64,000 nucleotides of DNA from a phage. The first letter of the stretch is position 1, and every line of letters starts with the position of its first letter. Positions 32,426 to 46,290 of this stretch are shown piece by piece. The stretch lies in assembly GCA_010671865.1 (NCBI GenBank), contig GCA_010671865.1_4083.1; one strand, written 5' to 3'. The translations under genes and the position numbers were made by a program. The notes under the pieces were generated by a model, which ran no database searches, was not told the DNA's origin, and worked only from the letters and a program-made list of their open reading frames with translations.

Positions 32426-32827
32426 TTACAGTCCTAAGATAGTGCGTGCTTCGTTACGTTCCGTACACAGCTGCATGATGTGAGCAAGTAAGTCCTTGCT
32501 AATGTATCCGGTGTTCATAGCTTCACGAATAGATACATCATAAGCACCGAACCCCGTGCGAACGATACGCACATCATTCAGGTTAGTATTATAGATACCG
32601 CCGAGATCAACGGCTTCGAATACTACATCAACAGAATATTCATTGTTGCCATCGTGGAAGTTTTCCAGTGCAATAGTATTGGATACCGCCCAACGTTTGC
32701 AGTTTCCAATGATGCGGCACTGTTCCGGTTGGATAGTACCATTACTTACAGCGTACTCCAGTGCATCTTTACCGAAAGTCCGAGCCAGTACTAAAACGTC
32801 AGCGAAGGAATTGATTGAGAAGGTCAT
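32426..32827 (-). CDS. hypothetical protein
   Basis: track ORF 32426..32860 trimmed to Met with AAGGAG RBS; upstream ATG lies inside the leader hairpin. Confidence 0.55.
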   Translation of the reverse strand: MTFSINSFADVLVLARTFGKDALEYAVSNGTIQPEQCRIIGNCKRWAVSNTIALENFHDGNNEYSVDVVFEAVDLGGIYNTNLNDVRIVRTGFGAYDVSIREAMNTGYISKDLLAHIMQLCTERNEARTILGL

Positions 32828-32839
32828 GATAAAACTCCT

Positions 32840-32912
32840 TAATTTAGGAGGGAGAACCATTTCCCCCTCTCTATGTAAAACATTATACTTGATTCTAAGT
32901 ACTATGCAAGTA
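32840..32912 (-). promoter_or_regulatory. promoter plus 5'-leader hairpin cassette
   Basis: minus strand: TTGCAT-16-TATAAT-GTTTTACAT then hairpin GAGGGGGAAATGGTTCTCCCTCC then AAGGAG RBS; approximate. Confidence 0.5.
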
Positions 32913-32916
32913 CTTT

Positions 32917-33249
32917 TTACATTTTAATACCTGGATTCAGGTAGCGGTGAGATCCATATTCTGGATCGGTTTCGGTCCAGTACTGTAAATCGATAGTACC
33001 TTTCGCGTTAATCTTGTCTACCAGCTTATTCATCTTAGTGTATACTACGTCAGCATCGATGCGTTTAAAGCCAGTAGCTTTAGTGAAGTAGTAGTGATTT
33101 GCTTCACTATCATTAAGGATATACCGAGCACCGTTTGCAGTCTGTGCGATAATGATTGAGTATTCTACTTCCCGATCCAGACCGTCGATGAATACAGATG
33201 AAACATTGGTACGGATGAAAGCTTTAACGATAGCGATTGAAGTACTCAT
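32917..33249 (-). CDS. hypothetical protein
   Basis: 110-aa ORF; AGGAG RBS. Confidence 0.55.
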   Translation of the reverse strand: MSTSIAIVKAFIRTNVSSVFIDGLDREVEYSIIIAQTANGARYILNDSEANHYYFTKATGFKRIDADVVYTKMNKLVDKINAKGTIDLQYWTETDPEYGSHRYLNPGIKM

Positions 33250-33332
33250 TTTGAATCTCCTAACTTTGTGGGCCGTCGCACCATTGCCGCCCTACGAGAT
33301 ACATTATTGCAGTACTGATATACTTTGTCAAT
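33250..33332 (-). promoter_or_regulatory. promoter plus leader hairpin cassette
   Basis: minus strand TTGACA-17-AATAAT then GC-rich hairpin before RBS of 32917..33249; approximate. Confidence 0.45.
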
Positions 33333-33453
33333 ACTTTTTTTATTAATAGTTTTCACCCCACCAGCAGATAGTTACTCACCGTTATTAACTATATATTTTA
33401 GATACACTCCTGCACCCAGTGGGCTAGTTTTTGTCTATGCGTATATAATAGCA

Positions 33454-33487
33454 AAGGGACTGACCGGAGTCAATCCCTTTTTTTATT
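33454..33487 (-). terminator. bidirectional intrinsic terminator (repeated element, copy 1)
   Basis: hairpin AAGGGACTGAC-CGGA-GTCAATCCCTT flanked by A-run and T-run; 17 nt downstream of stop of 33496..33696. Confidence 0.55.
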
Positions 33488-33495
33488 CTTTTTTG

Positions 33496-33696
33496 TTAGA
33501 TGATTCTCCAATCTTCTACGATCATGGTAAGATAACGGACCATCGATTCAAGTGATTCGAATTCCCGATAGTCTGCCGCTCCACCAGCGGTACAAGTACA
33601 GCCGATTAAACCATTTTGTAATTCCTTAATCTGTACATCGATAAGGTTGGCTTTAGCTTCTTTCAGTACTTCAACCAGGGCGAGAGCGATAGACAT
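33496..33696 (-). CDS. hypothetical protein
   Basis: 66-aa ORF; GGAG RBS; own promoter cassette. Confidence 0.55.
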   Translation of the reverse strand: MSIALALVEVLKEAKANLIDVQIKELQNGLIGCTCTAGGAADYREFESLESMVRYLTMIVEDWRII

Positions 33697-33699
33697 AAT

Positions 33700-33780
33700 G
33701 TTTTACTCCAAACTATTGGCGGGAGAACTATTCCCCCGCTCTATGTAAAACATTATACATTACTGGTTAGTACTGTCAAA
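33700..33780 (-). promoter_or_regulatory. promoter plus leader hairpin cassette
   Basis: minus strand TTGACA-16-TATAAT-GTTTTACAT, hairpin GAGCGGGGGAATAGTTCTCCCGCC; approximate. Confidence 0.5.
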
Positions 33781-33786
33781 TAGTTT

Positions 33787-34044
33787 TTATGAAATATCTT
33801 CGATGTAGTCGGCCCATTTCATTTTTTCAGTACTGTCAATGGCTACCGGATTATTTGGATCAAACCATTCACCATTACCGCAATACATACCAACGGCTAC
33901 GGTTTTATAGCCATCCTGGGCAGTACACCACGACATTGCACGATAGATATGGCCTTTAACTGGTTGCAGTACTGGTAACGTTTTATGGTCTTCTACGTAG
34001 GCCATAGCTTGAGGATTTACCCGATATTGTGTGAACTGTTCCAT
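33787..34044 (-). CDS. hypothetical protein
   Basis: 85-aa ORF; AAGGGG RBS. Confidence 0.55.
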   Translation of the reverse strand: MEQFTQYRVNPQAMAYVEDHKTLPVLQPVKGHIYRAMSWCTAQDGYKTVAVGMYCGNGEWFDPNNPVAIDSTEKMKWADYIEDIS

Positions 34045-34120
34045 TATGTTTCCCCTTGTAGTTAGTAAAGTTATTACATCAGTACTATCAAGCTATGTCA
34101 ATAGTACTGAAATAAAACTT

Positions 34121-34345
34121 TTAGATTAGATTATTGAGGCCGTCAATGGTAGACTCACTTTCTTCTTTCTCCCATTGTCGGTAGTACTTCCATGCTTCAT
34201 GATAGGTGGCGATTAGTTCATCTTTTTGATCCTGGTTACATGCCAGTACTGAATCACGGTGAGCGGTGTTATAGATAGAATCGAATGATTTCTTCTCTTC
34301 TGCCAGGTTAGCTACTTCCCGCATCAGTTCATCAAAGTTAGCCAT
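34121..34345 (-). CDS. hypothetical protein
   Basis: 74-aa ORF; AAGGAG RBS. Confidence 0.55.
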   Translation of the reverse strand: MANFDELMREVANLAEEKKSFDSIYNTAHRDSVLACNQDQKDELIATYHEAWKYYRQWEKEESESTIDGLNNLI

Positions 34346-34422
34346 TTTATTACTCCTTTTAGTGGGGGAGGATATATCCCCCTATGCAAAACATTATACT
34401 TTGTTTTAGTTATTATGCAAGT
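34346..34422 (-). promoter_or_regulatory. promoter plus leader hairpin cassette
   Basis: minus strand TTGCAT-16-TATAAT-GTTTTGCAT, hairpin GGGGGATATATCCTCCCCC; approximate. Confidence 0.5.
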
Positions 34423-34676
34423 ACTTTTTTCATATAAACATTATATTCTACACCGCCGTAACCTTCCACGATGATATGTTTTGCGTTATCACGTTTGCAC
34501 ATAGTGAAACCATCGTTTACGTGTTTTGCATTTTCCAGGGCGACATCACCGATAGCGGCACATACTGAACTAATAACGATATTCCGCAAAGTACTGGTAT
34601 CATTAGCGGTCATAGTAGTTTGCAGTACTACGTTGTCGTATACGTGTGCATTGATAGTGATTTCGATAGTGTTCAT
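34413..34676 (-). CDS. hypothetical protein
   Basis: track ORF 34413..34730 trimmed to MNTIEIT; the upstream MFYIERGKWFPL is a translation of the promoter/hairpin cassette. Confidence 0.55.
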   Translation of the reverse strand: MNTIEITINAHVYDNVVLQTTMTANDTSTLRNIVISSVCAAIGDVALENAKHVNDGFTMCKRDNAKHIIVEGYGGVEYNVYMKKVLA

Positions 34677-34758
34677 GGTGTATCTCCTGGACTTGAGGGG
34701 AAACCATTTCCCCCTCTCGATATAAAACATTATACGTTAATCTAACTACAATGCAAGT
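34677..34758 (-). promoter_or_regulatory. promoter plus leader hairpin cassette
   Basis: TTGCAT-16-TATAAT-GTTTTATATC, hairpin GGGGAAATGGTTTCCCC; approximate. Confidence 0.5.
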
Positions 34759-34763
34759 ACTTT

Positions 34764-34955
34764 TTAAATTTTATTTCCGATATAGTCCGGCCTATTCTTT
34801 TCGGTCATACGCTTTGCTAATGTTTGCATATAGCTTATCGCGTTTAAGGTGTCTTCCTCCAGGGATGAATCAACATAATCAGGATCATTCTTCACCTTGC
34901 AATGATTATGATAGCGTAGTACTGCCAGTACTTTTTTAACTTCTTCAACTGTCAT
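34764..34955 (-). CDS. hypothetical protein
   Basis: 63-aa ORF; ATGA overlap with upstream gene. Confidence 0.5.
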   Translation of the reverse strand: MTVEEVKKVLAVLRYHNHCKVKNDPDYVDSSLEEDTLNAISYMQTLAKRMTEKNRPDYIGNKI

Positions 34956-35224
34956 AATAAGTATTCCACTTCGTTAGCTTTCAGGTTAGTATCAATCATC
35001 AGTGGTTTTTTGTAGTCCACAAAACGATTAGTTTTCTCGATAGCGAAGCCCATATAATCCAGCTTGCTTACAGTACATTCATTCTTAAAAACTTCTTTCG
35101 CGGCATTGATGGCTGATTCAATTGATAACCGACCATCTAAGTTAATGTTACCAAATGATCCACCAGCAGAAGTAGGATTACCGTTCATATCTTTAATAAT
35201 CATAGTAGCGGAGTAGCTGGACAT
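34952..35224 (-). CDS. hypothetical protein
   Basis: 90-aa ORF; AAGGAAAC RBS. Confidence 0.55.
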   Translation of the reverse strand: MSSYSATMIIKDMNGNPTSAGGSFGNINLDGRLSIESAINAAKEVFKNECTVSKLDYMGFAIEKTNRFVDYKKPLMIDTNLKANEVEYLL

Positions 35225-35308
35225 AATTTTGTTTCCTTTTATTGGTGGGGAGAACTATTCTCCCCCTTGATGTAAACTATTATACAGTACTGATATACTT
35301 TGTCAATA
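35225..35308 (-). promoter_or_regulatory. promoter plus leader hairpin cassette
   Basis: TTGACA-16-TATAAT, hairpin GGGGGAGAATAGTTCTCCCCACC; approximate. Confidence 0.5.
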
Positions 35309-35309
35309 C

Positions 35310-35531
35310 TTAATTACGGATAAAGTGATAAAGACCATTATCATCATTAACGCCCCATACTGATTTACCATTTAAACCAGTGAAGCCGGATTGCAATTCA
35401 ATATGGAAACCGTTAGCATCAACGACGAAAACTTTTTTATTTTCATCCCGATAGCATTGATATTCTTCACCTGCTTTAAATGCTGCATCATTCAGAAGAT
35501 TTGAAGCGTGAACGCAGGTCATAGTAGCCAT
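35310..35531 (-). CDS. hypothetical protein
   Basis: track ORF 35310..35588 trimmed to MATMTCVHAS (AAGGAA RBS); upstream part is cassette read-through. Confidence 0.55.
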   Translation of the reverse strand: MATMTCVHASNLLNDAAFKAGEEYQCYRDENKKVFVVDANGFHIELQSGFTGLNGKSVWGVNDDNGLYHFIRN

Positions 35532-35616
35532 CGTCTTGATTCCTTTTAGTACCAGGGGGAACCATTTCCCCCTCTCGATATAAAACATTATACGCTCATT
35601 GAGATAGTTTGCAAGT
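35532..35616 (-). promoter_or_regulatory. promoter plus leader hairpin cassette
   Basis: TTGCAA-17-TATAAT-GTTTTATATC, hairpin GGGGGAAATGGTTCCCCC; approximate. Confidence 0.5.
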
Positions 35617-35717
35617 ACTTTTTATCAAATAGTTTTCAGTACTGAATACTTATATAATAGATACACTTCCGCACCCTATGGGTCAGTGAGTTATCTCTCA
35701 ATGAATATATAATAGCA

Positions 35718-35748
35718 AAGGGACTGACTGGAGTCAATCCCTTTTTTA
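35718..35748 (-). terminator. bidirectional intrinsic terminator (repeated element, copy 2)
   Basis: hairpin AAGGGACTGACTGGAGTCAATCCCTT plus T-run; just downstream of stop of 35756..36340. Confidence 0.55.
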
Positions 35749-35755
35749 ATCTTTT

Positions 35756-36340
35756 TTATCGTGTTATAGTTATCGCGTTAACATCACGTTTTTTATAGTA
35801 CTGATTCCAGATATTGCGGGTTAAACCGTAATCAAGTACTTTAATCAAGCCGTTGCGATCCTGGCCGATATTCTGTTTTCTGATATCTCTTATCGTTAGT
35901 GTGGATAATGTATCATCAACGTGATTGAGAGCATCAGCGAAATGGTGTTGGCGTTCTACCGTATTACGTTTAATATTGTACTTTAACTCATTGCACGCGT
36001 TTACATGCTTTACACTGCCTTTGCTTGCAGTACTCAAACGATCCATAACAATAAACAGATTATCAGGATCGCATAAATGCATATGCACCTTGGCAAAGAA
36101 CTGTTTAAGGTGCGGACGGTCATAATCTAAAAAATTCCATACCTTACATTCAGTTTCATTTTGTTCTACACCCGCATCACAATTCGCGACCTTAATCACT
36201 AACCGATCATTTAAAGCGAATACAATACGGGAAGAACCCGCACCGACGATCTCCAGTCCAGCTAACCGACAAGCTGAAAGGATCTCTTTGTTGGTTTCCA
36301 TTGCATGAAGTGAACGGATGAATTTAGTATAGTTACGCAT
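35756..36340 (-). CDS. putative protein kinase-like protein
   Basis: trimmed to MRNYTKF (AAGGAG RBS); motifs in canonical order: Gly-rich GAGSSRIVF, VIKV, catalytic-loop-like IRDIRKQN, DFG-like LDYG. Confidence 0.4.
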   Translation of the reverse strand: MRNYTKFIRSLHAMETNKEILSACRLAGLEIVGAGSSRIVFALNDRLVIKVANCDAGVEQNETECKVWNFLDYDRPHLKQFFAKVHMHLCDPDNLFIVMDRLSTASKGSVKHVNACNELKYNIKRNTVERQHHFADALNHVDDTLSTLTIRDIRKQNIGQDRNGLIKVLDYGLTRNIWNQYYKKRDVNAITITR

Positions 36341-36371
36341 TGTGTTGACTCCTTGAGTTAATGAAACTATA

Positions 36372-36614
36372 TTACAGTACTTTACTATCAATGGCAACTA
36401 CTTTTTTTACTTGAACTGCGTGGAATACTTCACGCGTATTTTTAGTACTGAATACTTTTGCCGTACCTTGTTCGACCGCAATACGATATCGACCGTTAAC
36501 GTCCACCATGTTGATAAAGTCCGGTGTACTGAATGGAGTTACCCGGCATTTAAGAACGGTTAACAGTTCCACCAGCGTTGTAGTCTCTTTGATACGTTTT
36601 TCTAAAGTAATCAT
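36372..36614 (-). CDS. hypothetical protein
   Basis: track ORF 36372..36671 trimmed to MITLEKR; upstream MTVLKCFSTMYAYQ is promoter read-through. Confidence 0.5.
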   Translation of the reverse strand: MITLEKRIKETTTLVELLTVLKCRVTPFSTPDFINMVDVNGRYRIAVEQGTAKVFSTKNTREVFHAVQVKKVVAIDSKVL

Positions 36615-36671
36615 TTTGTTTTCCCCGTGTTGGTATGCGTACATAGTACTAAAACATTTGAGTACTGTCAA

Positions 36672-36890
36672 TTAGATAATAGAATATTTCTTTAGTGATA
36701 ATGCGTCTTCTGTCGGTTGATATTCTACACCGTTCCCGTTATCAACCTTAGTGAGTAAACCTTTATCAATGAGTTTTTTGATGGTACGGTTTCCCTGTTG
36801 AAAACTGGTGAAGTGTGAATCATTACGAAAGGTATAACCGTGCTTCACTGCTTCATCAATAGTTTTCTTTTCGATTTTAGATAATTTCAT
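36672..36890 (-). CDS. hypothetical protein
   Basis: track ORF 36672..36950 trimmed to MKLSKIEK; same promoter type as 36372..36614. Confidence 0.5.
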   Translation of the reverse strand: MKLSKIEKKTIDEAVKHGYTFRNDSHFTSFQQGNRTIKKLIDKGLLTKVDNGNGVEYQPTEDALSLKKYSII

Positions 36891-36946
36891 TTTGTTTCTC
36901 TCTCTGTGTTGGTATAGATACATAATACTAAAACAATTGAGTACTG

Positions 36947-37201
36947 TCAACGTGATATTAGTTTTATTTTTTTATTGTATTGTTGGTGTTCATATAGATT
37001 AATTTTTCCAGTACTCTCAATTACTATTCTATTGTTAGTGTCTACATCGATAACACGTAGTTTCCCGTTGCTTAACTTCCTGGGTAATAGACTACCATTA
37101 ATAAACTCATTAGCAAGCTGTACGGCCTTTGTGATGATTCTCTGTGGTGCTTTATAGTGTACCCGCAAGATATTATCTTTAGATAGTTGTACCTTCATCA
37201 T
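36947..37201 (-). CDS. hypothetical protein
   Basis: 84-aa ORF. Confidence 0.5.
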   Translation of the reverse strand: MMKVQLSKDNILRVHYKAPQRIITKAVQLANEFINGSLLPRKLSNGKLRVIDVDTNNRIVIESTGKINLYEHQQYNKKIKLISR

Positions 37202-37214
37202 TTTAGTTTATCCT

Positions 37215-37243
37215 ATAAAAAAAGGCGGGAACTGAACCCGCCG
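37215..37243 (-). terminator. intrinsic terminator
   Basis: minus strand GGCGGGTTCAGTTCCCGCC hairpin followed by TTTTTTT; downstream of 37266..37661. Confidence 0.6.
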
Positions 37244-37265
37244 TGTTGTTAGTACTGCAAAGTTT

Positions 37266-37661
37266 TTAGATAACCTGGCGGCGTTTACTGTATACTGTTA
37301 CACGGTTTCCTTTACGGTCATGACGGATCTCTTTCTGGTTACGAATCAGTTCACTTGGACGCTTAAGGTTTGCCAGGTGATCCGCGTGAGTCCATGCATT
37401 TGCGTTAACTGTAACTTCAATATCAGAACCTTTCAAAAAGTCATCTTGAGCGTTCAGTACTTCAGCCAGTTCTTGAGCTTGCTTTAGTTCTGCTTCAGTA
37501 AGTACAGGCTCAGGTGAATTCACAATATCAGAGATCTCTTTGAACTGTACCGCCCAGCGTTGTCCTTTCGGTGCATCTTTGCCCATGTCTTTAAATGTTT
37601 CACCTTCTTCACGAGCAACGATGCGAGCTTGTTCACGGGTAGCGAAGAATTTAGTAATCAT
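37266..37661 (-). CDS. hypothetical protein (paralog of 49170..49436)
   Basis: track ORF trimmed to MITKFFATREQ; shares FATREQARI...FKDMG...DRKGNRVTVY with 49170..49436. Confidence 0.55.
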   Translation of the reverse strand: MITKFFATREQARIVAREEGETFKDMGKDAPKGQRWAVQFKEISDIVNSPEPVLTEAELKQAQELAEVLNAQDDFLKGSDIEVTVNANAWTHADHLANLKRPSELIRNQKEIRHDRKGNRVTVYSKRRQVI

Positions 37662-37760
37662 GGTGTACATCCTATTAGTTAAGTTAATTAGTACTACAAG
37701 TTAGAGTCTATTATAAAGTACTATCTGGGCAATGTCAAATAGTACTTTAAATGGATTCTA

Positions 37761-38084
37761 TTACATGTCTTTTTTACGTTTTACATCGTAGTAACGAACT
37801 GTAATTTCTTTGTTGATCTCATCCTCAATTCTGTGTAGTACTTTCTCTTTCGGGTTGAAACCTATTACAGTTTCTTTAATGATCTCCAAGCCCGTGTATT
37901 CGCCTTGTGTACCGTAACCGTAAGTAAAGGTTTCATGTCCCAGGTCTTCCCAGCGGTCACCAATCAATGCAGACACGTAGCATGAGTGGTAAGTATTGCC
38001 GTGGCTATCAGTCCACCGATTAACTTTAATGTCAAAGGAAGTTACAATTTTCATTTCTACTTTCTGGGCAAGGATCATAGTCAT
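37761..38084 (-). CDS. hypothetical protein (paralog of 43890..44213)
   Basis: 107-aa ORF; shares RWTDSHGNTYHSC...FTYGY...RKKD with 43890..44213. Confidence 0.6.
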   Translation of the reverse strand: MTMILAQKVEMKIVTSFDIKVNRWTDSHGNTYHSCYVSALIGDRWEDLGHETFTYGYGTQGEYTGLEIIKETVIGFNPKEKVLHRIEDEINKEITVRYYDVKRKKDM

Positions 38085-38170
38085 TTTAATTTCTCTCTTT
38101 TTGTTAGGAAGGGAACCATTCCCCTCACTTGATGTAAACTATTATACAGTACTAAGATACTTTGTCAATA
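38085..38170 (-). promoter_or_regulatory. promoter plus leader hairpin cassette
   Basis: TTGACA-16-TATAAT, hairpin GGGGAATGGTTCCC; approximate. Confidence 0.5.
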
Positions 38171-38171
38171 C

Positions 38172-38447
38172 TTAAGTATTGTAAATGTCGTGAATAGTGA
38201 TAAAGTTTTTACGACCGTAAACATGTAAATCAGTATCAATGTAGTGCTTATCAAGTACATCCTCGACGCTTAAAGCCGTGTCGTGAATATCTTCATAGAA
38301 TTGTGGATCTACAATCTTACTTAAATCATCCGGCGTTAACTTATCATTGAGCCATTGCACCGCCTGGATATCTGCATCACGTTTCCAGTCTTCCAGGTTA
38401 GTAGTCAGTACTTGCTCGATTTCGTTAGCTGTCAGTAGAATCCGCAT
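38172..38447 (-). CDS. hypothetical protein
   Basis: 91-aa ORF. Confidence 0.55.
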   Translation of the reverse strand: MRILLTANEIEQVLTTNLEDWKRDADIQAVQWLNDKLTPDDLSKIVDPQFYEDIHDTALSVEDVLDKHYIDTDLHVYGRKNFITIHDIYNT

Positions 38448-38528
38448 TTTAATTTCTCTCTTTGTTAGGTGGGGAACTATTCCCCACTTGATGTAAAATA
38501 TTATACAGTACTAAAAACTATTGTCAAA
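38448..38528 (-). promoter_or_regulatory. promoter plus leader hairpin cassette
   Basis: TTGACA-16-TATAAT, hairpin GTGGGGAATAGTTCCCCAC; approximate. Confidence 0.5.
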
Positions 38529-38536
38529 CTATTTTA

Positions 38537-38737
38537 TCAAATTGTTTCCCATTTCATGTTACCCGCTTTACGCTGTGAAACAGGAATAAACATGTTATTA
38601 ATGTTACTAATATAACCGACCTGTAAGTCACGCTGTGAACCATACGCCCGACTTGCTGCATTTTTAGCACCGCGTTCTGATTTATAAACGCCGCTGGATA
38701 CTGTAAAGCCTACTACACCGAAAGTAAAATGTTTCAT
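38537..38737 (-). CDS. hypothetical protein
   Basis: 66-aa ORF; long leader with tandem promoters. Confidence 0.5.
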   Translation of the reverse strand: MKHFTFGVVGFTVSSGVYKSERGAKNAASRAYGSQRDLQVGYISNINNMFIPVSQRKAGNMKWETI

Positions 38738-39020
38738 TTTGTATTCCTCTTTGTGGTTGATGTAAGTATTATACTCGTTTAATTTCTATTGTCAAACTAT
38801 TTTATCAGGGGAGGTTTTCGTATGTCTTACTCCTGGACTACTTAACGGGGTTACTTATTTCGTTCCCCGTCCTGATGTAAAACATTATACTTGATTCTAA
38901 GTACAATGCAAGTACTTTTTAAAAATAGTTTTCAGTACTTGATAGTACTAGCCACCAGCAAACAATAGATACATTTATGCACCCTGTGGGCTGATTTGTT
39001 TCTATGCGTATATAATAGCA

Positions 39021-39049
39021 AAGGGACTGACCGGAGTCAATCCCTTTTT
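39021..39049 (-). terminator. bidirectional intrinsic terminator (repeated element, copy 3)
   Basis: hairpin AAGGGACTGACCGGAGTCAATCCCTT plus T-run. Confidence 0.55.
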
Positions 39050-39058
39050 CAATTATTT

Positions 39059-39208
39059 TTAAACTTGTTTCGGGTTGCGATAGGTGATAGCGTTCGGGTA
39101 CATTTGTTTAATGTTATTCCATGCCTGGTTAACATTGTAACCACTTGAGCGAATCAGTTGGTTACTACCGACACCTTGAAACACTACTTCGAATAAGAAT
39201 TCTTTCAT
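39059..39208 (-). CDS. hypothetical small protein (49 aa)
   Basis: hand-translated MKEFLFEVVFQGVGSNQLIRSSGYNVNQAWNNIKQMYPNAITYRNPKQV; GAGGTG RBS; approximate. Confidence 0.4.
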   Translation of the reverse strand: MKEFLFEVVFQGVGSNQLIRSSGYNVNQAWNNIKQMYPNAITYRNPKQV

Positions 39209-39378
39209 GCTTTCACCTCGCTATCTGCTTTACCTTTACGCCAGGACATTACTAATTGTTCGCGTTGCCATAAGTCGAGTGATACAAAAAGTTTTGCGGT
39301 ATCACTTTTAGGATACTCGCCAGTAGTACCTAACCGATAAAACAGATCTTTCAGTACTGATAATTCTACTTGAATCAT
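39205..39378 (-). CDS. hypothetical small protein (57 aa)
   Basis: hand-translated MIQVELSVLKDLFYRLGTTGEYPKSDTAKLFVSLDLWQREQLVMSWRKGKADSEVKA; AGGAG RBS; ATGA overlap downstream; approximate. Confidence 0.4.
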   Translation of the reverse strand: MIQVELSVLKDLFYRLGTTGEYPKSDTAKLFVSLDLWQREQLVMSWRKGKADSEVKA

Positions 39379-39467
39379 TTTATTACTCCTGATTGCGTTA
39401 ATACTTCTACTATTGCATGAATGATCATAAGTACAGCTAAAACAATAATCATCGGATTCATTTGCAT
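39375..39467 (-). CDS. hypothetical small hydrophobic peptide (~30 aa)
   Basis: rough hand translation MQMNPMIIVLAVLMIIHAIVEVLTQSGVIK; AGGAG RBS; coordinates and sequence approximate. Confidence 0.3.
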   Translation of the reverse strand: MQMNPMIIVLAVLMIIHAIVEVLTQSGVIK

Positions 39468-39484
39468 AAGCTGTACTCCTTATA

Positions 39485-39697
39485 TTAATCTTTCAGCCAA
39501 TGATCCTGAATGAATTTTTCGCCGGAACCTTGCTGCATTGATTGTAACAGACGTTCACGATGAGCGGCGGCGAATTGCTCAGTACTATGCGTTACGCCAG
39601 GCTGATAACGTGATACCCCATCCGGTCCGATGTATTGTACATCCCACGGTTTTTCGTTAGTATCAGACCATTTACGAACGATTAGTTGACCTTGCAT
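39485..39697 (-). CDS. hypothetical protein
   Basis: 70-aa ORF; GAGGAAAG RBS. Confidence 0.55.
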   Translation of the reverse strand: MQGQLIVRKWSDTNEKPWDVQYIGPDGVSRYQPGVTHSTEQFAAAHRERLLQSMQQGSGEKFIQDHWLKD

Positions 39698-39775
39698 TTT
39701 TCTTTCCTCTCAGTGGGGAGAATCATTTCTCCCCTTCATGTAACTTATTATACAGTACTAGATTATCTTGTCAAT
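39698..39775 (-). promoter_or_regulatory. promoter plus leader hairpin cassette
   Basis: TTGACA-16-TATAAT, hairpin GGGGAGAAATGATTCTCCCC; approximate. Confidence 0.5.
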
Positions 39776-39780
39776 AGTTT

Positions 39781-40104
39781 TTATTCACCTTGTTTGAATT
39801 TAGTTTTCTCCATTGATTCCATGATTGCAACCAATACGCTGTGGATCTCGCTTAACGCGGAATCACTGAAAGCATTAATGAATAGTCGATCATTCTCGCG
39901 AATATTTTTAATGTACTTTTCAGCAGTAGTTGCGAATTCATTCAACGGTAGATCAAATGCTTTATCCCATGATGGATGGCGTAATTGTAACAGTACTGGA
40001 TTATCACGATCACCAGGGGAAAACGTACCAGTGATGAAACATACGCCCGGAATACTTTCGAACTGGCAACGGACTTCCTTTGTGATAGTAGTATGAATGT
40101 ACAT
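39781..40104 (-). CDS. hypothetical protein
   Basis: 107-aa ORF; GAGGA RBS. Confidence 0.55.
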   Translation of the reverse strand: MYIHTTITKEVRCQFESIPGVCFITGTFSPGDRDNPVLLQLRHPSWDKAFDLPLNEFATTAEKYIKNIRENDRLFINAFSDSALSEIHSVLVAIMESMEKTKFKQGE

Positions 40105-40131
40105 TTATTGTTATCCTCTATTAAATTAATA

Positions 40132-40326
40132 TTACAGTTTATGAATCAATTCTTTATCTAAGCGATAGCGTACATTATTAATAGTAACGGCATTGTTTTT
40201 AATGCTACGCTGTACAGGTCCACCAGCAATAACAAATGTTGCTTTATTACCCCGAACAATGATAGCACTTCCAGGATTACCGAAATCATCTTGTACTAAA
40301 ATACTTGATAAGTTTTCCATTTTCAT
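40132..40326 (-). CDS. hypothetical protein
   Basis: 64-aa ORF; true start may be the second Met (MENLSS) by RBS spacing. Confidence 0.5.
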   Translation of the reverse strand: MKMENLSSILVQDDFGNPGSAIIVRGNKATFVIAGGPVQRSIKNNAVTINNVRYRLDKELIHKL

Positions 40327-40401
40327 TTCCTCTTAGTAGGGGAAGATGTTTCCCCTTGATGTAAGTACTATAACACTACTGGATAGTACTGTCAATACTT
40401 T

Positions 40402-40659
40402 TTATCTCATAGATCTATGCCAACAATTACGCGGGGGACGTTTAAAAGTACTATCATGATCCTCCTGGCAAGTTATGCAGTACTTACATCCCTTAACAGC
40501 CCGGCGGCGATTCTCAGGGATTTTATCGCCACAGTCGAGGCAATGTATCAGTGATTCTATTTGTGCGTTAATTTGCTTTCTAGCGTGGTTTACGGCGGCC
40601 TGAATCACTGCGTTAATCTCGTCTTGTTCGGCCCCGTCTTTCGCGAATCCTACAGCCAT
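40402..40659 (-). CDS. DksA/TraR-family C4 zinc-finger protein
   Basis: 85-aa ORF with C-x2-C-x17-C-x2-C and hallmark CLDCGDKIPENRRRAVKG...CITCQ. Confidence 0.6.
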   Translation of the reverse strand: MAVGFAKDGAEQDEINAVIQAAVNHARKQINAQIESLIHCLDCGDKIPENRRRAVKGCKYCITCQEDHDSTFKRPPRNCWHRSMR

Positions 40660-40856
40660 TATTTTAACCTTTTTCTATCATTAATTAATGCTTTCAGTAC
40701 TATACTAATAACTTGCAATGATTCATCAATGACTATAAAATTATTTTCTTTCATTAGATGATAGTTACCATTGATATTATATTCTAACGAGTACTGTTTA
40801 CGTTTAATTTTTGATAATGTTTCTATTTGTTTTTGTACTGATTTCATGCTAATCAT
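40659..40856 (-). CDS. hypothetical protein
   Basis: 65-aa ORF; 1-nt stop/start overlap with 40402..40659. Confidence 0.5.
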   Translation of the reverse strand: MISMKSVQKQIETLSKIKRKQYSLEYNINGNYHLMKENNFIVIDESLQVISIVLKALINDRKRLK

Positions 40857-40961
40857 TGTTAAACGTCCTGTAACGCATTCTAACGAGATAAACGGTTTAG
40901 TACTGGCATTGTATAGGGTAATGAATTAAAGCCCACCAGCGTTAACCAGTGGGCTATAATC

Positions 40962-41105
40962 TTACATCTTGCGGATAATCTTAACAGTATCTTTCACCGA
41001 TTTACCGTTTTGCTGACATTGTTCGATCATCGCGTATTGTTCTGCGGTCAGATCCTCGCCAGTTTTTGCCAGTACTGCATCGATGAATGAATCTAGTGCG
41101 ATCAT
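40962..41105 (-). CDS. hypothetical small protein (~47 aa)
   Basis: rough hand translation MIALDSFIDAVLAKTGEDLTAEQYAMIEQCQQNGKSVKDTVKIIRKM; approximate. Confidence 0.3.
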   Translation of the reverse strand: MIALDSFIDAVLAKTGEDLTAEQYAMIEQCQQNGKSVKDTVKIIRKM

Positions 41106-41204
41106 TTTGTTTCTCTCTTAGGTTAAGTTAACTACTGTTTATAAAACTTATTATACAGTACTATCAAACTATGTCAATATCTTTAATAGTACTGGTAATA
41201 TATT

Positions 41205-41447
41205 TTAGCGGTAGTCGTCGTATGCTTTATTCACCTGTCGAATGTAACTTTCAAAGGCTTCGTCTACCGTTTCATACTCCCGAACATAATCACCATAGGA
41301 AACTACATACATCCCTTTTTGATCTTCAAACGTCATGATGATAGAATCCAGGCCGATGATTTCAGTTTTTGCGATGATAGCCATTTTTAATTCCTTAGTA
41401 GTGTAGTTGATAAAACTTATTATGCCAGTACTATCAATCTTTGTCAA
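41205..41447 (-). CDS. hypothetical protein
   Basis: 80-aa ORF; promoter TTGACA-17-CATAAT without hairpin. Confidence 0.55.
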   Translation of the reverse strand: MTKIDSTGIISFINYTTKELKMAIIAKTEIIGLDSIIMTFEDQKGMYVVSYGDYVREYETVDEAFESYIRQVNKAYDDYR

Positions 41448-41466
41448 TAGTACTGTGATAATATTT

Positions 41467-41679
41467 TTAGTTAATGATAGTCAGTGTAAAATTGTAATCC
41501 CCTGCCTGGTATAGTACTTTGTCGCCGAACGTACCAACACGTTTCATATTGCAATAGATACCCATAACACTTTTTACATCTTTGATATTCCGAACGCCAG
41601 TGATATCCTTGTTGAAATTTTCATGATCAGAAAATAAAACTTGTTTTGCATTTTTCAGTACAGTGCAGATATTAGCCAT
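41467..41679 (-). CDS. hypothetical protein
   Basis: 70-aa ORF. Confidence 0.55.
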   Translation of the reverse strand: MANICTVLKNAKQVLFSDHENFNKDITGVRNIKDVKSVMGIYCNMKRVGTFGDKVLYQAGDYNFTLTIIN

Positions 41680-41762
41680 TTTGTTTTCTCTTTGTTAGTG
41701 GGGAGAATCATTTCTCCCCTTCATGTAACTTATTATACAGTACTATAATCTATTGTCAAACT
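41680..41762 (-). promoter_or_regulatory. promoter plus leader hairpin cassette
   Basis: TTGACA-16-TATAAT, hairpin GGGGAGAAATGATTCTCCCC; approximate. Confidence 0.5.
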
Positions 41763-41773
41763 ATTTTTTAATA

Positions 41774-42115
41774 TTATTCAAAATCTTCTGGACCGGACTG
41801 ATAATCATCTTCACCGTATGCACTTTCTAACTTCTCGCCAGTGTGATCATCAGTTAGTGAGTCATCCTCATAGTTCACGTCTACGCCTACAATGTAAAAC
41901 TGGCTATCGTCTGGATCATTGAAATTAATTTTCTGAATGTTTACAATAACGGTATTGATGCCCAGGACACCGCCATCAGCAGTTACAAAGTACTGATAGT
42001 TTTCACAACCGCCTGAATTGAAACCGTAATTAATTTCGGCCCGACCATCATTTAAACGCAGTACCTGGGCGATGATTTCGTTTTCAAAGTTAGATTGAGC
42101 AATTGAGATAGTCAT
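41774..42115 (-). CDS. hypothetical protein (acidic C-terminus)
   Basis: 113-aa ORF; C-terminal DDHTGEKLESAYGEDDYQSGPEDFE. Confidence 0.55.
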   Translation of the reverse strand: MTISIAQSNFENEIIAQVLRLNDGRAEINYGFNSGGCENYQYFVTADGGVLGINTVIVNIQKINFNDPDDSQFYIVGVDVNYEDDSLTDDHTGEKLESAYGEDDYQSGPEDFE

Positions 42116-42200
42116 GATTCGTTTCCTTATTACCAGGGGAAACCATTTCCCCTTGCGATGTAAAACATTATACGCTTATTGAGATAGTTTGCAAGTACTT
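42116..42200 (-). promoter_or_regulatory. promoter plus leader hairpin cassette
   Basis: TTGCAA-16-TATAAT-GTTTTACATC, hairpin GGGGAAATGGTTTCCCC, then TGGTAATAAGGAAAC RBS; approximate. Confidence 0.5.
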
Positions 42201-42296
42201 TTTAAAAATAGTTTTCAGTACTCAATACTTATATAATAGATACACTTATGCACCCTGTGGGCTAGTGAGCTATCTCTCAATGAATATATAATAGCA

Positions 42297-42327
42297 AAAT
42301 GGCTGACCGGAGTCAACCACTTTTTTT
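42297..42327 (-). terminator. bidirectional intrinsic terminator (repeated element, copy 4, with compensatory stem changes)
   Basis: hairpin TGGCTGAC-CGGA-GTCAACCA plus T-run; stem differs from copies 1-3 by paired substitutions. Confidence 0.55.
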
Positions 42328-42464
42328 CATTTATTTTTAGCTTTTAGAATCGCCGCCTTTCGTGTCATTCCTTGTTTGATGTACTCCTTTACTTTCGCTT
42401 TACGTGCTTTCGCTTTATCTGCTTTCGTTTTAGGAGTACTGTAAATTATACCGTTAGGATTCAT
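42327..42464 (-). CDS. hypothetical small lysine-rich basic protein (45 aa)
   Basis: hand-translated codon by codon: MNPNGIIYSTPKTKADKAKARKAKVKEYIKQGMTRKAAILKAKNK; approximate coordinates. Confidence 0.4.
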   Translation of the reverse strand: MNPNGIIYSTPKTKADKAKARKAKVKEYIKQGMTRKAAILKAKNK

Positions 42465-42554
42465 TTAAATCACCATAAAGAATAGATAGGTTACTAACAA
42501 TGCCGCGATCAATGCACCGACCAGGGCCGAACTGTAATAAGCCAATGATTTCAT
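42465..42554 (-). CDS. hypothetical small hydrophobic peptide (~29 aa)
   Basis: rough hand translation MKSLAYYSSALVGALIAALLVTYLFFMVI; ATGA overlap with upstream ORF; approximate. Confidence 0.3.
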   Translation of the reverse strand: MKSLAYYSSALVGALIAALLVTYLFFMVI

Positions 42555-42703
42555 TTTTTAGCCTGAAAATAGTGTTTAATTTGAGCGGCGGTCAGTGCAC
42601 AATTACGCAGGAAGTTTTCTGTATAACTGCGTCGAGTACTGAAAGAAAATTGACCTTTGCCGTTACCGATAGTAACATCAAACCGAGCATTATATTGTTT
42701 CAT
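42551..42703 (-). CDS. hypothetical small protein (~50 aa)
   Basis: rough hand translation MKQYNARFDVTIGNGKGQFSF...; AGGAG RBS; approximate. Confidence 0.35.
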   Translation of the reverse strand: MKQYNARFDVTIGNGKGQFSFSTRRSYTENFLRNCALTAAQIKHYFQAKK

Positions 42704-42817
42704 TTTGTTTCTCCTGATAGTGGGGAGTACTATTTCTCCCCTTCATGTAAAACATTATACAGTACTGAAAACTAATTGCAAGTATTATTTTTTAGATTTA
42801 CGCAAACTTTCTACCAT

Positions 42818-42931
42818 CTCAGGAGTAAGGCCCGGCGGGTAGGAAACCACTTCATCAACGAAACGTAAAGGGAATACCCCAGCGAAAGGTGAACATGCTT
42901 TCTTAGTATTACTCTTTTTTGATGCTTTCAT
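42818..42931 (-). CDS. hypothetical small protein (~37 aa)
   Basis: hand-translated MKASKKSNTKKACSPFAGVFPLRFVDEVVSLPAGPYS; AAGGAA RBS; own promoter/hairpin; approximate. Confidence 0.3.
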
Positions 42932-43000
42932 TTCATATTCCTTAATTAGTGGGGAGTACTATTTCTCCCCTTCATGTAAAACATTATACAGTACTGAAAA

Positions 43001-43210
43001 CTAATTGCAAGTACTATTTGAAAGTAAATGCTCATACGCTGCATTAACTACATTTTCAATAACCGACTGTACAGAAAGATCCCCCACGTCCTGGCTATAG
43101 TAGAAATTGCTTACAGTGGTGTCATCGTATGCAAATACTTTACCAGGTACGGCATCAATCACATACATATTAACCTTTAAGATGTCGATCTTATCCTGTA
43201 CAGTAAGCAT
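43001..43210 (-). CDS. hypothetical protein
   Basis: 69-aa ORF. Confidence 0.55.
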   Translation of the reverse strand: MLTVQDKIDILKVNMYVIDAVPGKVFAYDDTTVSNFYYSQDVGDLSVQSVIENVVNAAYEHLLSNSTCN

Positions 43211-43215
43211 ATTAA

Positions 43216-43488
43216 TTAACCTTTTAAGTACTGGCTTAAGTAGTCTTTTTGTTCTTCGGTGATTGCAGTCATCTTCCCTAGTACTGGATTGATGATATAA
43301 TCCCCTGTAACGTCCTGTACTGCGTTTTCAGGCTGTTTAACGGCAGGGGTAGCCATAGCCATAGCCTGGACTTGTTCCACACTGTAACGCTCATAAAGGC
43401 GGCATTCTTCCGGTGTTAACATAGCATCAGTACGCTTCATCGGTTTAATGATGCTTTCGATCTCATTCAGTACTTGATTAACGTTCAT
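43216..43488 (-). CDS. hypothetical protein
   Basis: 90-aa ORF. Confidence 0.55.
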   Translation of the reverse strand: MNVNQVLNEIESIIKPMKRTDAMLTPEECRLYERYSVEQVQAMAMATPAVKQPENAVQDVTGDYIINPVLGKMTAITEEQKDYLSQYLKG

Positions 43489-43539
43489 GGTATAATCCCC
43501 AATATAAGCGGCCTAAATCGACCGCTAACGATGTTTTGA

Positions 43540-43809
43540 TTAATAGGTGTATGGTTGACGCTCAAACAATGATTGTACGCTGTACGCCCCGCTAATGGGC
43601 TTCGCTGGTAAATCAATTTTATATTGCTCACGCTTAAAGATAATAAAACGGCAATTGTTTTTAACATCAAAATTGATTGAACGTTCCAGGAGTTTACCAT
43701 CGTGAACAAATACAAGATAACCACTTGGTACTTGTTTTGTAGTACTGGTTGCAACCATAGACCGACGAACATGTGTACCTGCATCGATTAAAGTACTGAT
43801 ATTTTTCAT
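43540..43809 (-). CDS. hypothetical protein
   Basis: 89-aa ORF; preferred over overlapping alternative frame 43485..43784. Confidence 0.5.
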   Translation of the reverse strand: MKNISTLIDAGTHVRRSMVATSTTKQVPSGYLVFVHDGKLLERSINFDVKNNCRFIIFKREQYKIDLPAKPISGAYSVQSLFERQPYTY

Positions 43810-43889
43810 TTTACTTTCCTCTTAAGTTGATTTAATTTCTTTCCCCTATGCAGACACTATATCAAAGTATCTGCATAAAGTAAAGCTAA

Positions 43890-44213
43890 TTAAAGATCTT
43901 TTTTGCGTTTAACATTCTGTACAGTACAATGCAACGGGATATTAAGATCATTGCACAAACGATAGAGGGAGGTTTCAACAGTATCAAGCCCGTCTACTGA
44001 TTCCTTTAAGAGTGATACCGCCGTTTGTTGATATGCATCCTCATAGCCATAAGTAAATGATTCAACCGCCAGATCATTCAAGCCGTTATCCAGTTCAACG
44101 CTTACATGACAAGAATGATAAGTATTGCCATATGAATCAGTCCAACGTTTACCGTCAACATTGATTGCATGGATTGCAGCCAGGGAAACGGTGTTGATGA
44201 TAGTTTTAGCCAT
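43890..44213 (-). CDS. hypothetical protein (paralog of 37761..38084)
   Basis: 107-aa ORF; shares RWTDSYGNTYHSC...FTYGY...KRKKDL. Confidence 0.6.
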   Translation of the reverse strand: MAKTIINTVSLAAIHAINVDGKRWTDSYGNTYHSCHVSVELDNGLNDLAVESFTYGYEDAYQQTAVSLLKESVDGLDTVETSLYRLCNDLNIPLHCTVQNVKRKKDL

Positions 44214-44299
44214 TTTAGTATTCCTTAAATTAATATGTGTCGTCTTGATAAAATCTATTATGCCAGTACTATCAAACTATGTCAATAGTACTGTGATAA

Positions 44300-44448
44300 T
44301 ATTTTTTACTTACTTTTTGCTTTCTTTGCTGCTTCCACCTGGTCGGCCCATTCTTTACCCCATACTTGTAAATTATAATGGTACTGGCAAAGTGCAACGC
44401 CCCGCTTTAAACCCGTAATAGATTTCTGACCACATTGACAAGTTTTCA
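44300..44448 (-). CDS. hypothetical small Cys-containing protein (~47 aa)
   Basis: rough hand translation MKTCQCGQKSITGLKRGVALCQYHYNLQVWGKEWADQVEAAKKAKSK; approximate. Confidence 0.3.
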
Positions 44449-44534
44449 TATTAGTTTCCTTGTAGTGGGGAGAATCATTTCTCCCCTTGATGTAATGTAT
44501 TATACTTTATTCGATTTACTTTGCAAGTACTTTT

Positions 44535-44762
44535 TTAATTTAATTCATCCAGGCAAAGGATACGTTCCACACCAAGATCCGTTAAACTAATGGTCGGTAC
44601 TTGATAGGTTTCAATGTATGCTACACTTGCCCACTGACCGAACTCATTAACGGCCCAGGTATTCATTGCATTTTGCAATTCCACACCTTCCTTGTTGGTA
44701 ATGACTGCAACTACTTGTTCGTTGCCAGTAGTACCAGATACGCGAGTAATGATAATAGCCAT
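44535..44762 (-). CDS. hypothetical protein
   Basis: 75-aa ORF; promoter TTGACA-17-CATAAT. Confidence 0.55.
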   Translation of the reverse strand: MAIIITRVSGTTGNEQVVAVITNKEGVELQNAMNTWAVNEFGQWASVAYIETYQVPTISLTDLGVERILCLDELN

Positions 44763-44837
44763 TTTTTAATTCCTATTCAGTAGTTGATGTATGTATTATG
44801 TCAGTACTTAAAACTATTGTCAAACTATTTTTTAAAG

Positions 44838-44985
44838 TTTATCAATGATTGATGCCGTTTCATTGATAGTCTTGCCGTGTTTTGCACACGCGATAACTGC
44901 TTTAAATTCCTTTGATGACCAATCTTTCTTGCTGCATACTGACATTACTTGTAAAGTAAAACAATCCAGTTCATAAGTATTCATC
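44838..44985 (-). CDS. hypothetical small protein (~49 aa)
   Basis: rough hand translation MNTYELDCFTLQVMSVCSKKDWSSKEFKAVIACAKHGKTINETASIIDKL; approximate. Confidence 0.3.
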
Positions 44986-45209
44986 TTTAAATCCTCAGTT
45001 AGTTAAGGTGTCTCGCCTTGATGTAATTAATTATACGCTAATCTCTTAATCGTGCAAGTACTTTTTATTACTTTTTGCAAAATACTTTAAACGCTCTCAA
45101 TCGCATTCTAACGGCCTTCACGCCACCAGCTAGGGCAATGCATCAGATAATCAGTTTAATGCGTTAGAATCGATTCTATCGGGTGCTAGTGGACTGGTAA
45201 ACGATAGAT

Positions 45210-45238
45210 ACAAAAAAGCCCACTGTTTAAGGTGGGCT
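45210..45238 (-). terminator. intrinsic terminator
   Basis: minus strand AGCCCACCTTAAACAGTGGGCT hairpin followed by TTTTTTG; downstream of 45260..45742. Confidence 0.6.
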
Positions 45239-45259
45239 AGTGATTCAGTACTTTAATTG

Positions 45260-45742
45260 TTATGCTTCAACTTTGCGATGAGCTTCGATCCATTCCTCGC
45301 GAGTCATACCGCTTTCTTTGATAGCGTCCAGTACTACCGCAATGCAGTTACCGCGTACAGGAATCATATGTTCTTCCCCGTTATCAAGTACTACAGTAAC
45401 ACGTTCTTGAATCCATTTTTTAGGTTTAGATTCTGGCTTATCTTCACCATACTTAACCGCCAGGGCTTTATGTGCCATTTCTACAACTACTTCCAGATCC
45501 AATCCAGACACCGCCGCCTGGATACTTTCGATTGTTGCTTGTAGTTCTGCTTCACGGGCTTTTTTCTGTTCTTCCAGTTCTGCTACCTTTTTGGCTTGCA
45601 GTTCTTTAGCTTCACTGTACGCAATGTTAAAATTGTTGCGTACTGCTTTCATGGTATCGTTATCCAGGTCAGCCAACAATTCAGCAGCAATAACAGTATC
45701 GTTTGAAATCAGTGCTTTCAGGAATGATTTTACATTAGCCAT
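45260..45742 (-). CDS. hypothetical protein with predicted coiled-coil segment
   Basis: track ORF trimmed to MANVKSF (GAGGA RBS); heptad-like KELQAKKVAELEEQKKAREAELQATIESIQAA. Confidence 0.55.
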   Translation of the reverse strand: MANVKSFLKALISNDTVIAAELLADLDNDTMKAVRNNFNIAYSEAKELQAKKVAELEEQKKAREAELQATIESIQAAVSGLDLEVVVEMAHKALAVKYGEDKPESKPKKWIQERVTVVLDNGEEHMIPVRGNCIAVVLDAIKESGMTREEWIEAHRKVEA

Positions 45743-45939
45743 TTTATAAATCCTCAATTAAAGTTTAGTTTACGTTTATTAGTGTATCAAAGTTTTATCG
45801 ACGTGTCCAGTTTTTCGTTCGACTTACTGGCGGTCTACTTAGTGCTCCCCGTCTTGATGTAATACATTCTACGCCTTTTTGTGGTAATGTCAACTACTAT
45901 TTTAAAACTATTTTTAAAGTATGCAGTACTACGATACTA

Positions 45940-45973
45940 CAAAAACAAAAAAGCCCACTGTTTAAGGTGGGCT
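45940..45973 (-). terminator. intrinsic terminator (same hairpin sequence as 45210..45238)
   Basis: identical AGCCCACtgtttaaGGTGGGCT hairpin with A/T runs; downstream of 45991..46290. Confidence 0.6.
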
Positions 45974-45990
45974 AGTGATTCAGTACTATA

Positions 45991-46290
45991 TTATAAACAG
46001 TTAATTACTCCGGTGTGCGTTACTTTCTCAGTATCCATAACAGTGACCGAACCGCGTTTAGTACTTGCATCGTAATAAATTGTCGTGCTACCTTTTTCGT
46101 CTTCTTCATGGAACGGCCCGTTTTTAAATGCTTCTGGCTGGATCTCTAAATCCTTTAAAACAATCTCGCCAGTACTTTCATTGGTCATCGCTACAGTGCA
46201 CTGAATGAATTTTTCACTACTTACATCTAACGACGCATTAACAGCGAAAGAGGAAACAGATAAAGCCAGGGCGATGATTGCAACTTTCAT
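45991..46290 (-). CDS. hypothetical secreted/periplasmic protein
   Basis: 99-aa ORF; N-terminal signal-peptide-like MKVAIIALALSVSSFAVNA with A-x-A cleavage context. Confidence 0.5.
   Translation of the reverse strand: MKVAIIALALSVSSFAVNASLDVSSEKFIQCTVAMTNESTGEIVLKDLEIQPEAFKNGPFHEEDEKGSTTIYYDASTKRGSVTVMDTEKVTHTGVINCL

Follow-up and report, generated by a model that had tools for sequence, protein, structure and literature searches.

Do very short reading frames in the early region of a large phage encode proteins, and what would such proteins do? The question is posed by three overlapping frames of 30, 57, and 49 codons in a stretch of phage DNA of 64,000 nucleotides, the whole of which we call the window. 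The window belongs to an Asteriusvirus jumbo coliphage (PBECO4/121Q/G17 group); it shares 91–98% DNA identity with Asteriusvirus genomes, among them PBECO4, 121Q, G17, Sharanji, and JP4. A preliminary description of this DNA had presented the three frames as a translationally coupled trio; the sizes and coordinates it gave are exact, and the strand, which it left unstated, is minus. We find that the trio is the distal part of a longer unit: four minus-strand genes, in the order 70-30-57-49 amino acids (aa), lie between a promoter and a hairpin terminator. We refer to these genes and their products as p70, p30, p57, and p49. The features of the unit, in the order of transcription, are the following:

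39747..39774, minus strand: sigma-70 promoter of the four-gene unit (TTGACA, 16 nt, TATAAT), a 12/12 consensus match in a scan
39715..39734, minus strand: stem-loop GGGGAGAAATGATTCTCCCC in the 5' leader, shortly after the probable start of transcription, from reading of the sequence
39485..39697, minus strand: p70, the 70-aa gene, first in the unit, PHROG 13428 (ORF list, profile match)
39375..39467, minus strand: p30, the gene of a 30-aa single-helix membrane peptide (ORF list, hydropathy)
39205..39378, minus strand: p57, the 57-aa gene, PHROG 10572, a predicted three-helix protein (ORF list, profile, AF2)
39059..39208, minus strand: p49, the 49-aa gene, PHROG 37188, a predicted beta-beta-alpha-beta mini-domain (ORF list, profile, AF2)
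39020..39047, minus strand: terminator hairpin AAAGGGATTGACTCCGGTCAGTCCCTTT, 12 pairs, at the end of the unit (scan; a terminator is annotated in G17)

The junctions between these genes are tight. A Shine-Dalgarno site precedes the start of p70, and only 17 nt separate its stop from the start of p30; AAGGAG lies inside this gap, 8 nt before the p30 ATG. The remaining two junctions are ATGA overlaps: p57 follows p30 with AGGAG inside the p30 ORF, 7 nt before the p57 ATG, and p49 follows p57 with GAGGTG inside the p57 ORF, 5 nt before the p49 ATG. Overlapping stop and start codons together with an internal Shine-Dalgarno site, the sequence signature of translational coupling, are therefore present at both of these junctions, and the coupled arrangement proposed earlier stands. 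The overlaps are kept in G17, JP4, 121Q, and slurp01; A4 and Turkey5 retain only the overlap of the 57- and 49-aa genes, and their peptide ORF ends a few nucleotides before, or abuts, the 57-aa start. At the leader position, other copies of the promoter cassette as well as relatives carry a GC-rich hairpin whose arms are different but complementary. At the opposite end, the U-tract of the terminator is poor (TTTGCTATTATAT), and some transcripts may read through it.

The terminator belongs to a module that is present in three minus-strand copies, at 33443–33475, 39010–39042, and 42286–42318, each together with about 60 nt downstream. Its hairpin contains TTGACT; 17 nt later, TGcTATTAT provides a good extended −10 promoter match, and a conserved box, AGCCCACAGGGTGCATAAGTGTATCTA, follows about 25 nt beyond that match. 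From these motifs, the module may serve both to terminate transcription and to restart it.

Short ORFs are common in AT-rich DNA, and a 30-codon ORF is by itself within chance at a GC content of about 34%. The case that the frames are coding is one of comparison: we took the unit from 12 genomes, nine of Asteriusvirus and three of more distant phages, and estimated dN/dS by the method of Nei and Gojobori. All four genes are under purifying selection (dN/dS 0.02–0.3), with values of about 0.1 for p70 and 0.2–0.3 for p57 against several relatives, and 0.02–0.17 for p49, which differs from its 121Q counterpart by 9 synonymous and 0 non-synonymous changes. For p30, the comparison with 121Q gives a dN/dS of 0.09 (5 synonymous and 2 non-synonymous changes), and comparisons with A4 and Turkey5 give 0.2–0.3 at saturated dS. 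Binomial tests of the synonymous excess return P = 0.007 for p30 against 121Q, 0.004 for p57, and 4e-7 for p49. The p30 ORF thus stands above chance because it is conserved, with the same frames in more than 20 independent phage genomes and with synonymous-biased substitutions.

The same comparison bears on the opposite view: that the frames arose by chance, or are fragments of a single larger gene that sequencing frameshifts have split. The one record with frameshifts at the locus is CMSTMSU, an unverified, low-quality assembly, and it is the only observation besides the abundance of short ORFs that would favor this view. Against it, more than 20 independent genomes share one and the same arrangement of frames, stop codons crowd both alternative frames of the p30 segment in all genomes, each frame is under purifying selection, and other genera carry the genes apart from one another and in a different order. 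We regard a broken gene or chance frames as refuted by the comparative data and give this view next to no credence. Sequencing-error frameshifts, which the preliminary description had named as the outcome that would count against its proposal, are excluded by the recurrence of the same three frames in independently sequenced genomes, and dN/dS values well below 1 bear out its claim that the ORFs are coding. We conclude, with a probability of about 85%, that these are real, co-transcribed, and coupled early genes. Any specific function for them is held with much less confidence, and we consider a role as accessory early host-takeover proteins the most likely.

The word “early” derives from the position of the unit. 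The four genes are located within a direct terminal repeat of about 21 kb, which we delimit by mapping the window to the ends of the G17 record: window positions 29000–34000 correspond to G17 347154–352153, the trio corresponds to G17 7518–7926 (7.5–7.9 kb of that record), and positions 50000–54744 correspond to G17 18523–23539. This mapping places the repeat at about 31.5–52.6 kb of the window. Direct terminal repeats of 20.7–21.5 kb have been reported in relatives, and a terminal repeat is annotated in the records of vB_Ec-M-J, Muenster, and CBB. Since the region is inside the repeat, the 30-aa protein occurs twice in G17 (G17_00022 and G17_00635), and two copies of the genes are also found in other records that include the terminal repeat.

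The repeat is densely supplied with promoters. About 26 copies of a promoter cassette, all on the minus strand and the promoter of the four-gene unit among them, are spread over window positions 32866–51504, and this array coincides with the direct terminal repeat. The cassette has a fixed order: a −35 box, TATAAT, 6 nt, CAT, a GC-rich 5' stem-loop, a Shine-Dalgarno site, and ATG. The hairpin arms vary from copy to copy yet remain complementary, a pattern that suggests selection on a 5' mRNA structure. In location and promoters the genes fit a T5-like arrangement of early genes: they lie in a direct terminal repeat and behind host-type consensus promoters. In the related phage CBB, a stretch of short genes behind RpoD-like promoters, which extends into the terminal repeat, has been interpreted as an early host-takeover region (PMC5259590). 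A search of the literature on Asteriusvirus and RaK2-like phages found no expression, ribosome-profiling, proteome, or transcriptome data for the genes.

Other elements share this early block. Two minus-strand paralogues of 107 aa, at 37761–38084 and 43890–44213, have the common motif W/RWTDS(H/Y)GNTYHSC.VS...FTYGYG, and the pair indicates, at the level of sequence, gene duplication inside the terminal repeat. A CxxC...CxxC pattern marks an 85-aa minus-strand ORF at 40402–40659, which is annotated in relatives as a C4 zinc-finger protein of the DksA/TraR type; its product may modulate host RNA polymerase. Two copies, about 95% identical, of an ORF-less segment of 81–83 nt are found on the minus strand at ~38805–38885 and ~48495–48577. 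Each copy has its own promoter upstream and a second consensus promoter directly after it, and the surrounding promoter spacers have diverged; the segments have a folding z of about −2.5 and a predicted closing stem between their 5' and 3' ends, and they have no Rfam match. We take this segment as a candidate for either a small RNA or a structured leader. The JP4 record has plus-strand CDS annotations in the ORF-poor stretch that holds it. A scan of the whole window against Rfam returned no match.

The 30-aa product, MQMNPMIIVLAVLMIIHAIVEVLTQSGVIK, is predicted to form one hydrophobic helix, as had been suspected: the 19-residue Kyte-Doolittle maximum is 2.67, in a segment long enough to span the membrane, and the A4 and Turkey5 alleles reach 2.15–2.69. 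Across all 64 kb of the window, the minus strand, which carries the genes, has no small hydrophobic ORF other than p30 that starts with ATG behind a strong Shine-Dalgarno site. The peptide has no PHROG match at all. It is present in 22 phage records by tblastn, is annotated as G17_00022, G17_00635, and 121Q gp298, and is absent from 15 of the 37 close records; because the gene is missing from these, any role it plays is non-essential.

Comparison of the relatives resolves the junction between the 70- and 57-aa genes into three forms. In the window, G17, JP4, 121Q, and slurp01, a Shine-Dalgarno site is followed by a 30-aa gene that overlaps the 57-aa gene. In A4 and Turkey5, a complete promoter-hairpin cassette precedes a 29-aa allele of only 45–48% identity (MHMNPFIVVIAIIMAVQAVLVYLSKAGVI). 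The third form, found in ph0011, WPEC5, and CMSTMSU, consists of the promoter-hairpin cassette without a peptide gene. The peptide alleles are separated by a dS of 1.4–1.8, against 0.26–0.43 for the flanking 70-aa gene, and this excess divergence points to cassette exchange at the junction. The membrane peptide is dispensable and exchangeable, with a promoter cassette in its place in part of the genus, and these properties fit an accessory, host-specific role.

The peptide also extends beyond the genus. In the Klebsiella phages RaK2, Muenster, and KP13-7 (Alcyoneusvirus), ORF348 and ORF349 correspond to the 70- and 57-aa genes, and between them lies a 27-aa homologue of the peptide, MY(M/I)PIIIPLAVLLIAAVICE(Q/H)YHLLGM, preceded by a Shine-Dalgarno site of its own. 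The Klebsiella-phage and coliphage peptides have in common an MxM..P start, an LAVL core, and a mid-helix Glu. The homologue is annotated in K64-1 and unannotated in RaK2 (1914–1997 of the extracted segment), Muenster, and KP13-7 (~914–997 in both of the latter two extracted segments).

This distribution could be taken to mean that the 30-aa ORF is a translated spacer, which delivers ribosomes to the 57-aa gene and yields a peptide without a function of its own. The Shine-Dalgarno site for the 57-aa gene does fall within its last codons; where the ORF is absent, in the same 15 of 37 records, a promoter cassette with a Shine-Dalgarno site substitutes for it; and the 57-aa gene stands alone in GAP32, CBB, fHe-Yen9-04, and EJP2. 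Against this reading, changes in p30 favor synonymous sites: 5 of 7 changes against 121Q are synonymous (P 0.007), and the low dN/dS against A4 and Turkey5, although at saturated dS, runs in the same direction. Between Asteriusvirus and Alcyoneusvirus, the MxM(N)P N-terminus, the length of 27–30 aa, and the hydrophobic helix are all kept, as is the mid-helix Glu in most variants. Moreover, A4 and Turkey5 keep a peptide gene despite its own promoter. We consider a mere spacer improbable, and continue with p30 as a probable functional peptide of the membrane.

A second cluster of small genes, about 3 kb away in the same block, repeats the layout of the first: promoter and hairpin, small genes, and terminator, over 42781–42296 on the minus strand. 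Its features are:

42754..42781, minus strand: promoter of the second cluster (TTGCAA, 16 nt, TATAAT), from a scan; a hairpin follows
42551..42703, minus strand: 50-aa gene, PHROG 7119, first of the cluster (pN/pS 0–0.26)
42465..42554, minus strand: 29-aa hydrophobic peptide gene, with an ATGA overlap with the 50-aa gene (ORF list, hydropathy)
42327..42464, minus strand: 45-aa lysine-rich gene (net charge +12), PHROG 29913, starting directly after the stop of the 29-aa ORF
42296..42323, minus strand: terminator hairpin of the second cluster, a nearly identical, paralogous copy of the 39.0-kb module (scan)

Each of the three genes is conserved, and the substitutions in them favor synonymous sites. 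The 29-aa ORF is 93–100% conserved in five relatives, and between 121Q and G17 it shows 5 synonymous and 1 non-synonymous changes (P = 0.004); it is unannotated in 121Q, G17, A4, Turkey5, and ph0011 and annotated in phAPEC6, fEgEco12, and SD-1_S14. The second cluster (50, 29, and 45 aa; 42327–42703) is as real as the first. Two of its members had been pointed out in the preliminary description, and both agree with what was said of them: the 45-aa product is lysine-rich (14 K+R), and the 29-aa product is hydrophobic (Kyte-Doolittle maximum 2.69). With the trio and this cluster both conserved, a 60-aa ORF track indeed shows fewer genes than the block contains. The first member of each unit, p70 and the 50-aa gene, and the near-identical terminator modules with which both clusters end are additions to that account. 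Paralogy of the 29- and 30-aa membrane peptides was considered and rejected, as inspection reveals no sequence similarity.

A layout of small protein, membrane peptide, and small protein recurs in the two clusters, which are independent of each other; each has one very hydrophobic helix of 29–30 aa behind a strong promoter, and this invites comparison with membrane-damaging toxins. The peptides would then be Hok/Gef- or holin-like, acting in host shut-off or lysis timing, and the neighboring small proteins would be their modulators. We judge this highly improbable. The peptides sit in the early block of the terminal repeat and not in a lysis cassette, an idea that we reject; they match no holin or toxin family, and the 30-aa peptide has only one charged residue at its terminus. 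An early, constitutive pore-former would kill the host before phage production. To our knowledge, peptides of 29–30 aa are also shorter than the known holins. Accessory early proteins, with p30 in the membrane, are the reading that we carry forward to the other three products.

These three are conserved proteins that belong to families of unknown function. Scans of the proteins of the unit against Pfam, NCBIfam, and PHROGs found no family of known function, a PDB sequence search gave chance-level matches only, and word-indexed homologue searches recovered close relatives only. p57 matches PHROG 10572 (E 1.6e-27, residues 1–56 of 57) and is found in 54 phage records from 5 genera, 37 of them Escherichia and Salmonella phages. 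An exhaustive profile search of 1.8 billion representatives places 14 in its family; all are 53–59 aa long, all are unnamed stand-alone mini-proteins, and the family motif is M[IV][QH]V[DE]L...[FW]Y..G...LD.WQ[RK].EL. The AF2 model of p57 has three helices (pLDDT 86, confident in only 1 of 5 models), and a Foldseek search of the model against the PDB returned nothing below E = 2 and no structural neighbor. In GAP32, CBB, fHe-Yen9-04, and EJP2, the p57 homologue has no peptide gene upstream, and it has its own promoter in the first three.

p49 matches PHROG 37188 (E 3.6e-40, residues 1–49) and is present in 45 phage records. Its AF2 model is a beta-beta-alpha-beta mini-domain of high confidence (pLDDT 93.6). 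Foldseek against the PDB yields weak neighbors (E at or above 0.18): a crAss001 virion protein, the archaeal ribosomal protein LX, and T7 Gp2. Against BFVD, the significant matches are the relatives of p49 itself, and the weaker ones are many uncharacterized phage mini-proteins; a 49-aa CBB protein is among the significant matches and extends the family to that genus. The RaK2 homologue (48 aa, 58% identical, 1435–1581 of the extracted RaK2 segment) is unannotated in RaK2 and KP13-7; it is placed upstream of the 70-aa homologue and not downstream of the 57-aa gene. p70 matches PHROG 13428 (E 5.3e-33, residues 1–70) and has homologues in RaK2 (ORF348) and the Yersinia phage fHe-Yen9-04. The gene order 70-30-57 is common to Asteriusvirus and the RaK2-like Klebsiella phages; with p49 included, the order is 70-30-57-49 in Asteriusvirus and 49-70-30-57 in the RaK2-like phages.

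How might such a unit work? Host RNA polymerase would transcribe it immediately after DNA entry, and the 5' hairpin would stabilize the message. Ribosomes finishing one ORF would restart on the next, and the small proteins would be made together and in similar amounts. Bacterial and phage membrane mini-proteins usually act by modulating membrane proteins or processes. The 30-aa peptide would insert in the inner membrane, with a C-in orientation favored because its single Lys is at the C-terminus (positive-inside rule), and may there modulate a host membrane protein or process, or exclude other phages. The 57- and 49-aa proteins would be soluble accessory host-takeover factors. A bolder proposal is that 70-30-57-49 is a functionally linked module across two jumbo-phage genera, in which a membrane-tethered early complex disables a host envelope or defense function and p49 is a Gp2-like binder of a host enzyme; we hold this to be a long shot.

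The genes themselves are already known as annotated hypothetical proteins, a limit on novelty and not on correctness. Each of the four is annotated as a hypothetical protein in some relatives: the trio is G17_00020 to G17_00022 and 121Q gp300, gp299, and gp298, and the whole unit is G17_00020–23 and 121Q gp297–300. What the finding mainly confirms is that genuine genes in the early regions of phages escape an ORF track whose floor is 60 aa, and it shows that membrane peptides of 27–30 aa are annotated inconsistently even among closely related genomes. In addition, the genes are candidate host-takeover, exclusion, or anti-defense mini-proteins in a phage group that is used in therapy studies.

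The closest comparison is with the annotated genes of other Asteriusvirus phages. Those of 121Q (gp297–300) and G17 (G17_00020–23) are the same genes, with 75–100% protein identity and the same order and overlaps. The records differ in completeness: A4 and slurp01 omit the 30-aa gene, several omit the 29-aa gene, and JP4 has the 49-aa region mis-annotated on the opposite strand.

For the membrane peptide, the nearest described family is NCBIfam NF033695 (KPN_01571 family), a 30-aa transporter-adjacent peptide. Four p30 variants align with it from the third residue; they score 15.3–19.7 bits, far under the 35-bit cut-off for membership, and the RaK2 variant gives no match. The p30 locus is without an adjacent transporter gene, and a literature search for KPN_01571 found nothing. 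The sub-threshold match, repeatable across variants, is a lead from sequence and not membership. In size and form, p30 also resembles the bacterial small membrane proteins of the AcrZ, MgtS, and MgrB class, which likewise have about 30 aa and one hydrophobic helix.

For p49, the comparison is with Gp2 of phage T7, a small protein that inhibits the host RNA polymerase. The two are of similar size, the predicted fold of p49 resembles the compact beta-beta-alpha-beta topology of Gp2 (TM 0.59–0.68, rmsd 2.5), and Gp2 is an early phage protein, as is p49. The Foldseek E is 0.36–2.6 at an identity of 9–12%, values that other small folds better and unrelated ones about equal. Gp2 is an acidic protein, whereas p49 has a net charge of +3. 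The fold is a generic small one, and we do not assign p49 to the Gp2-type RNA polymerase inhibitors, given its net charge and the lack of any Pfam or PDB sequence match.

At the level of the whole block, the likeness is to the pre-early genes of phage T5 and the immediate-early genes of phage T4. Both sets are dense in very small genes, mostly of unknown function, behind strong host-type promoters, and both serve host takeover and exclusion; the T5 pre-early genes are located in a long direct terminal repeat. No sequence relationship between the genes described here and these early genes was found, and the likeness is one of genes and promoters. T5 and T4 serve as a working analogy for the dense small genes, one that in T5 includes their position in a terminal repeat. 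Large lytic phages are well known to carry tiny early genes in arrays, and the unit holds nothing unexpected for a phage of this kind.
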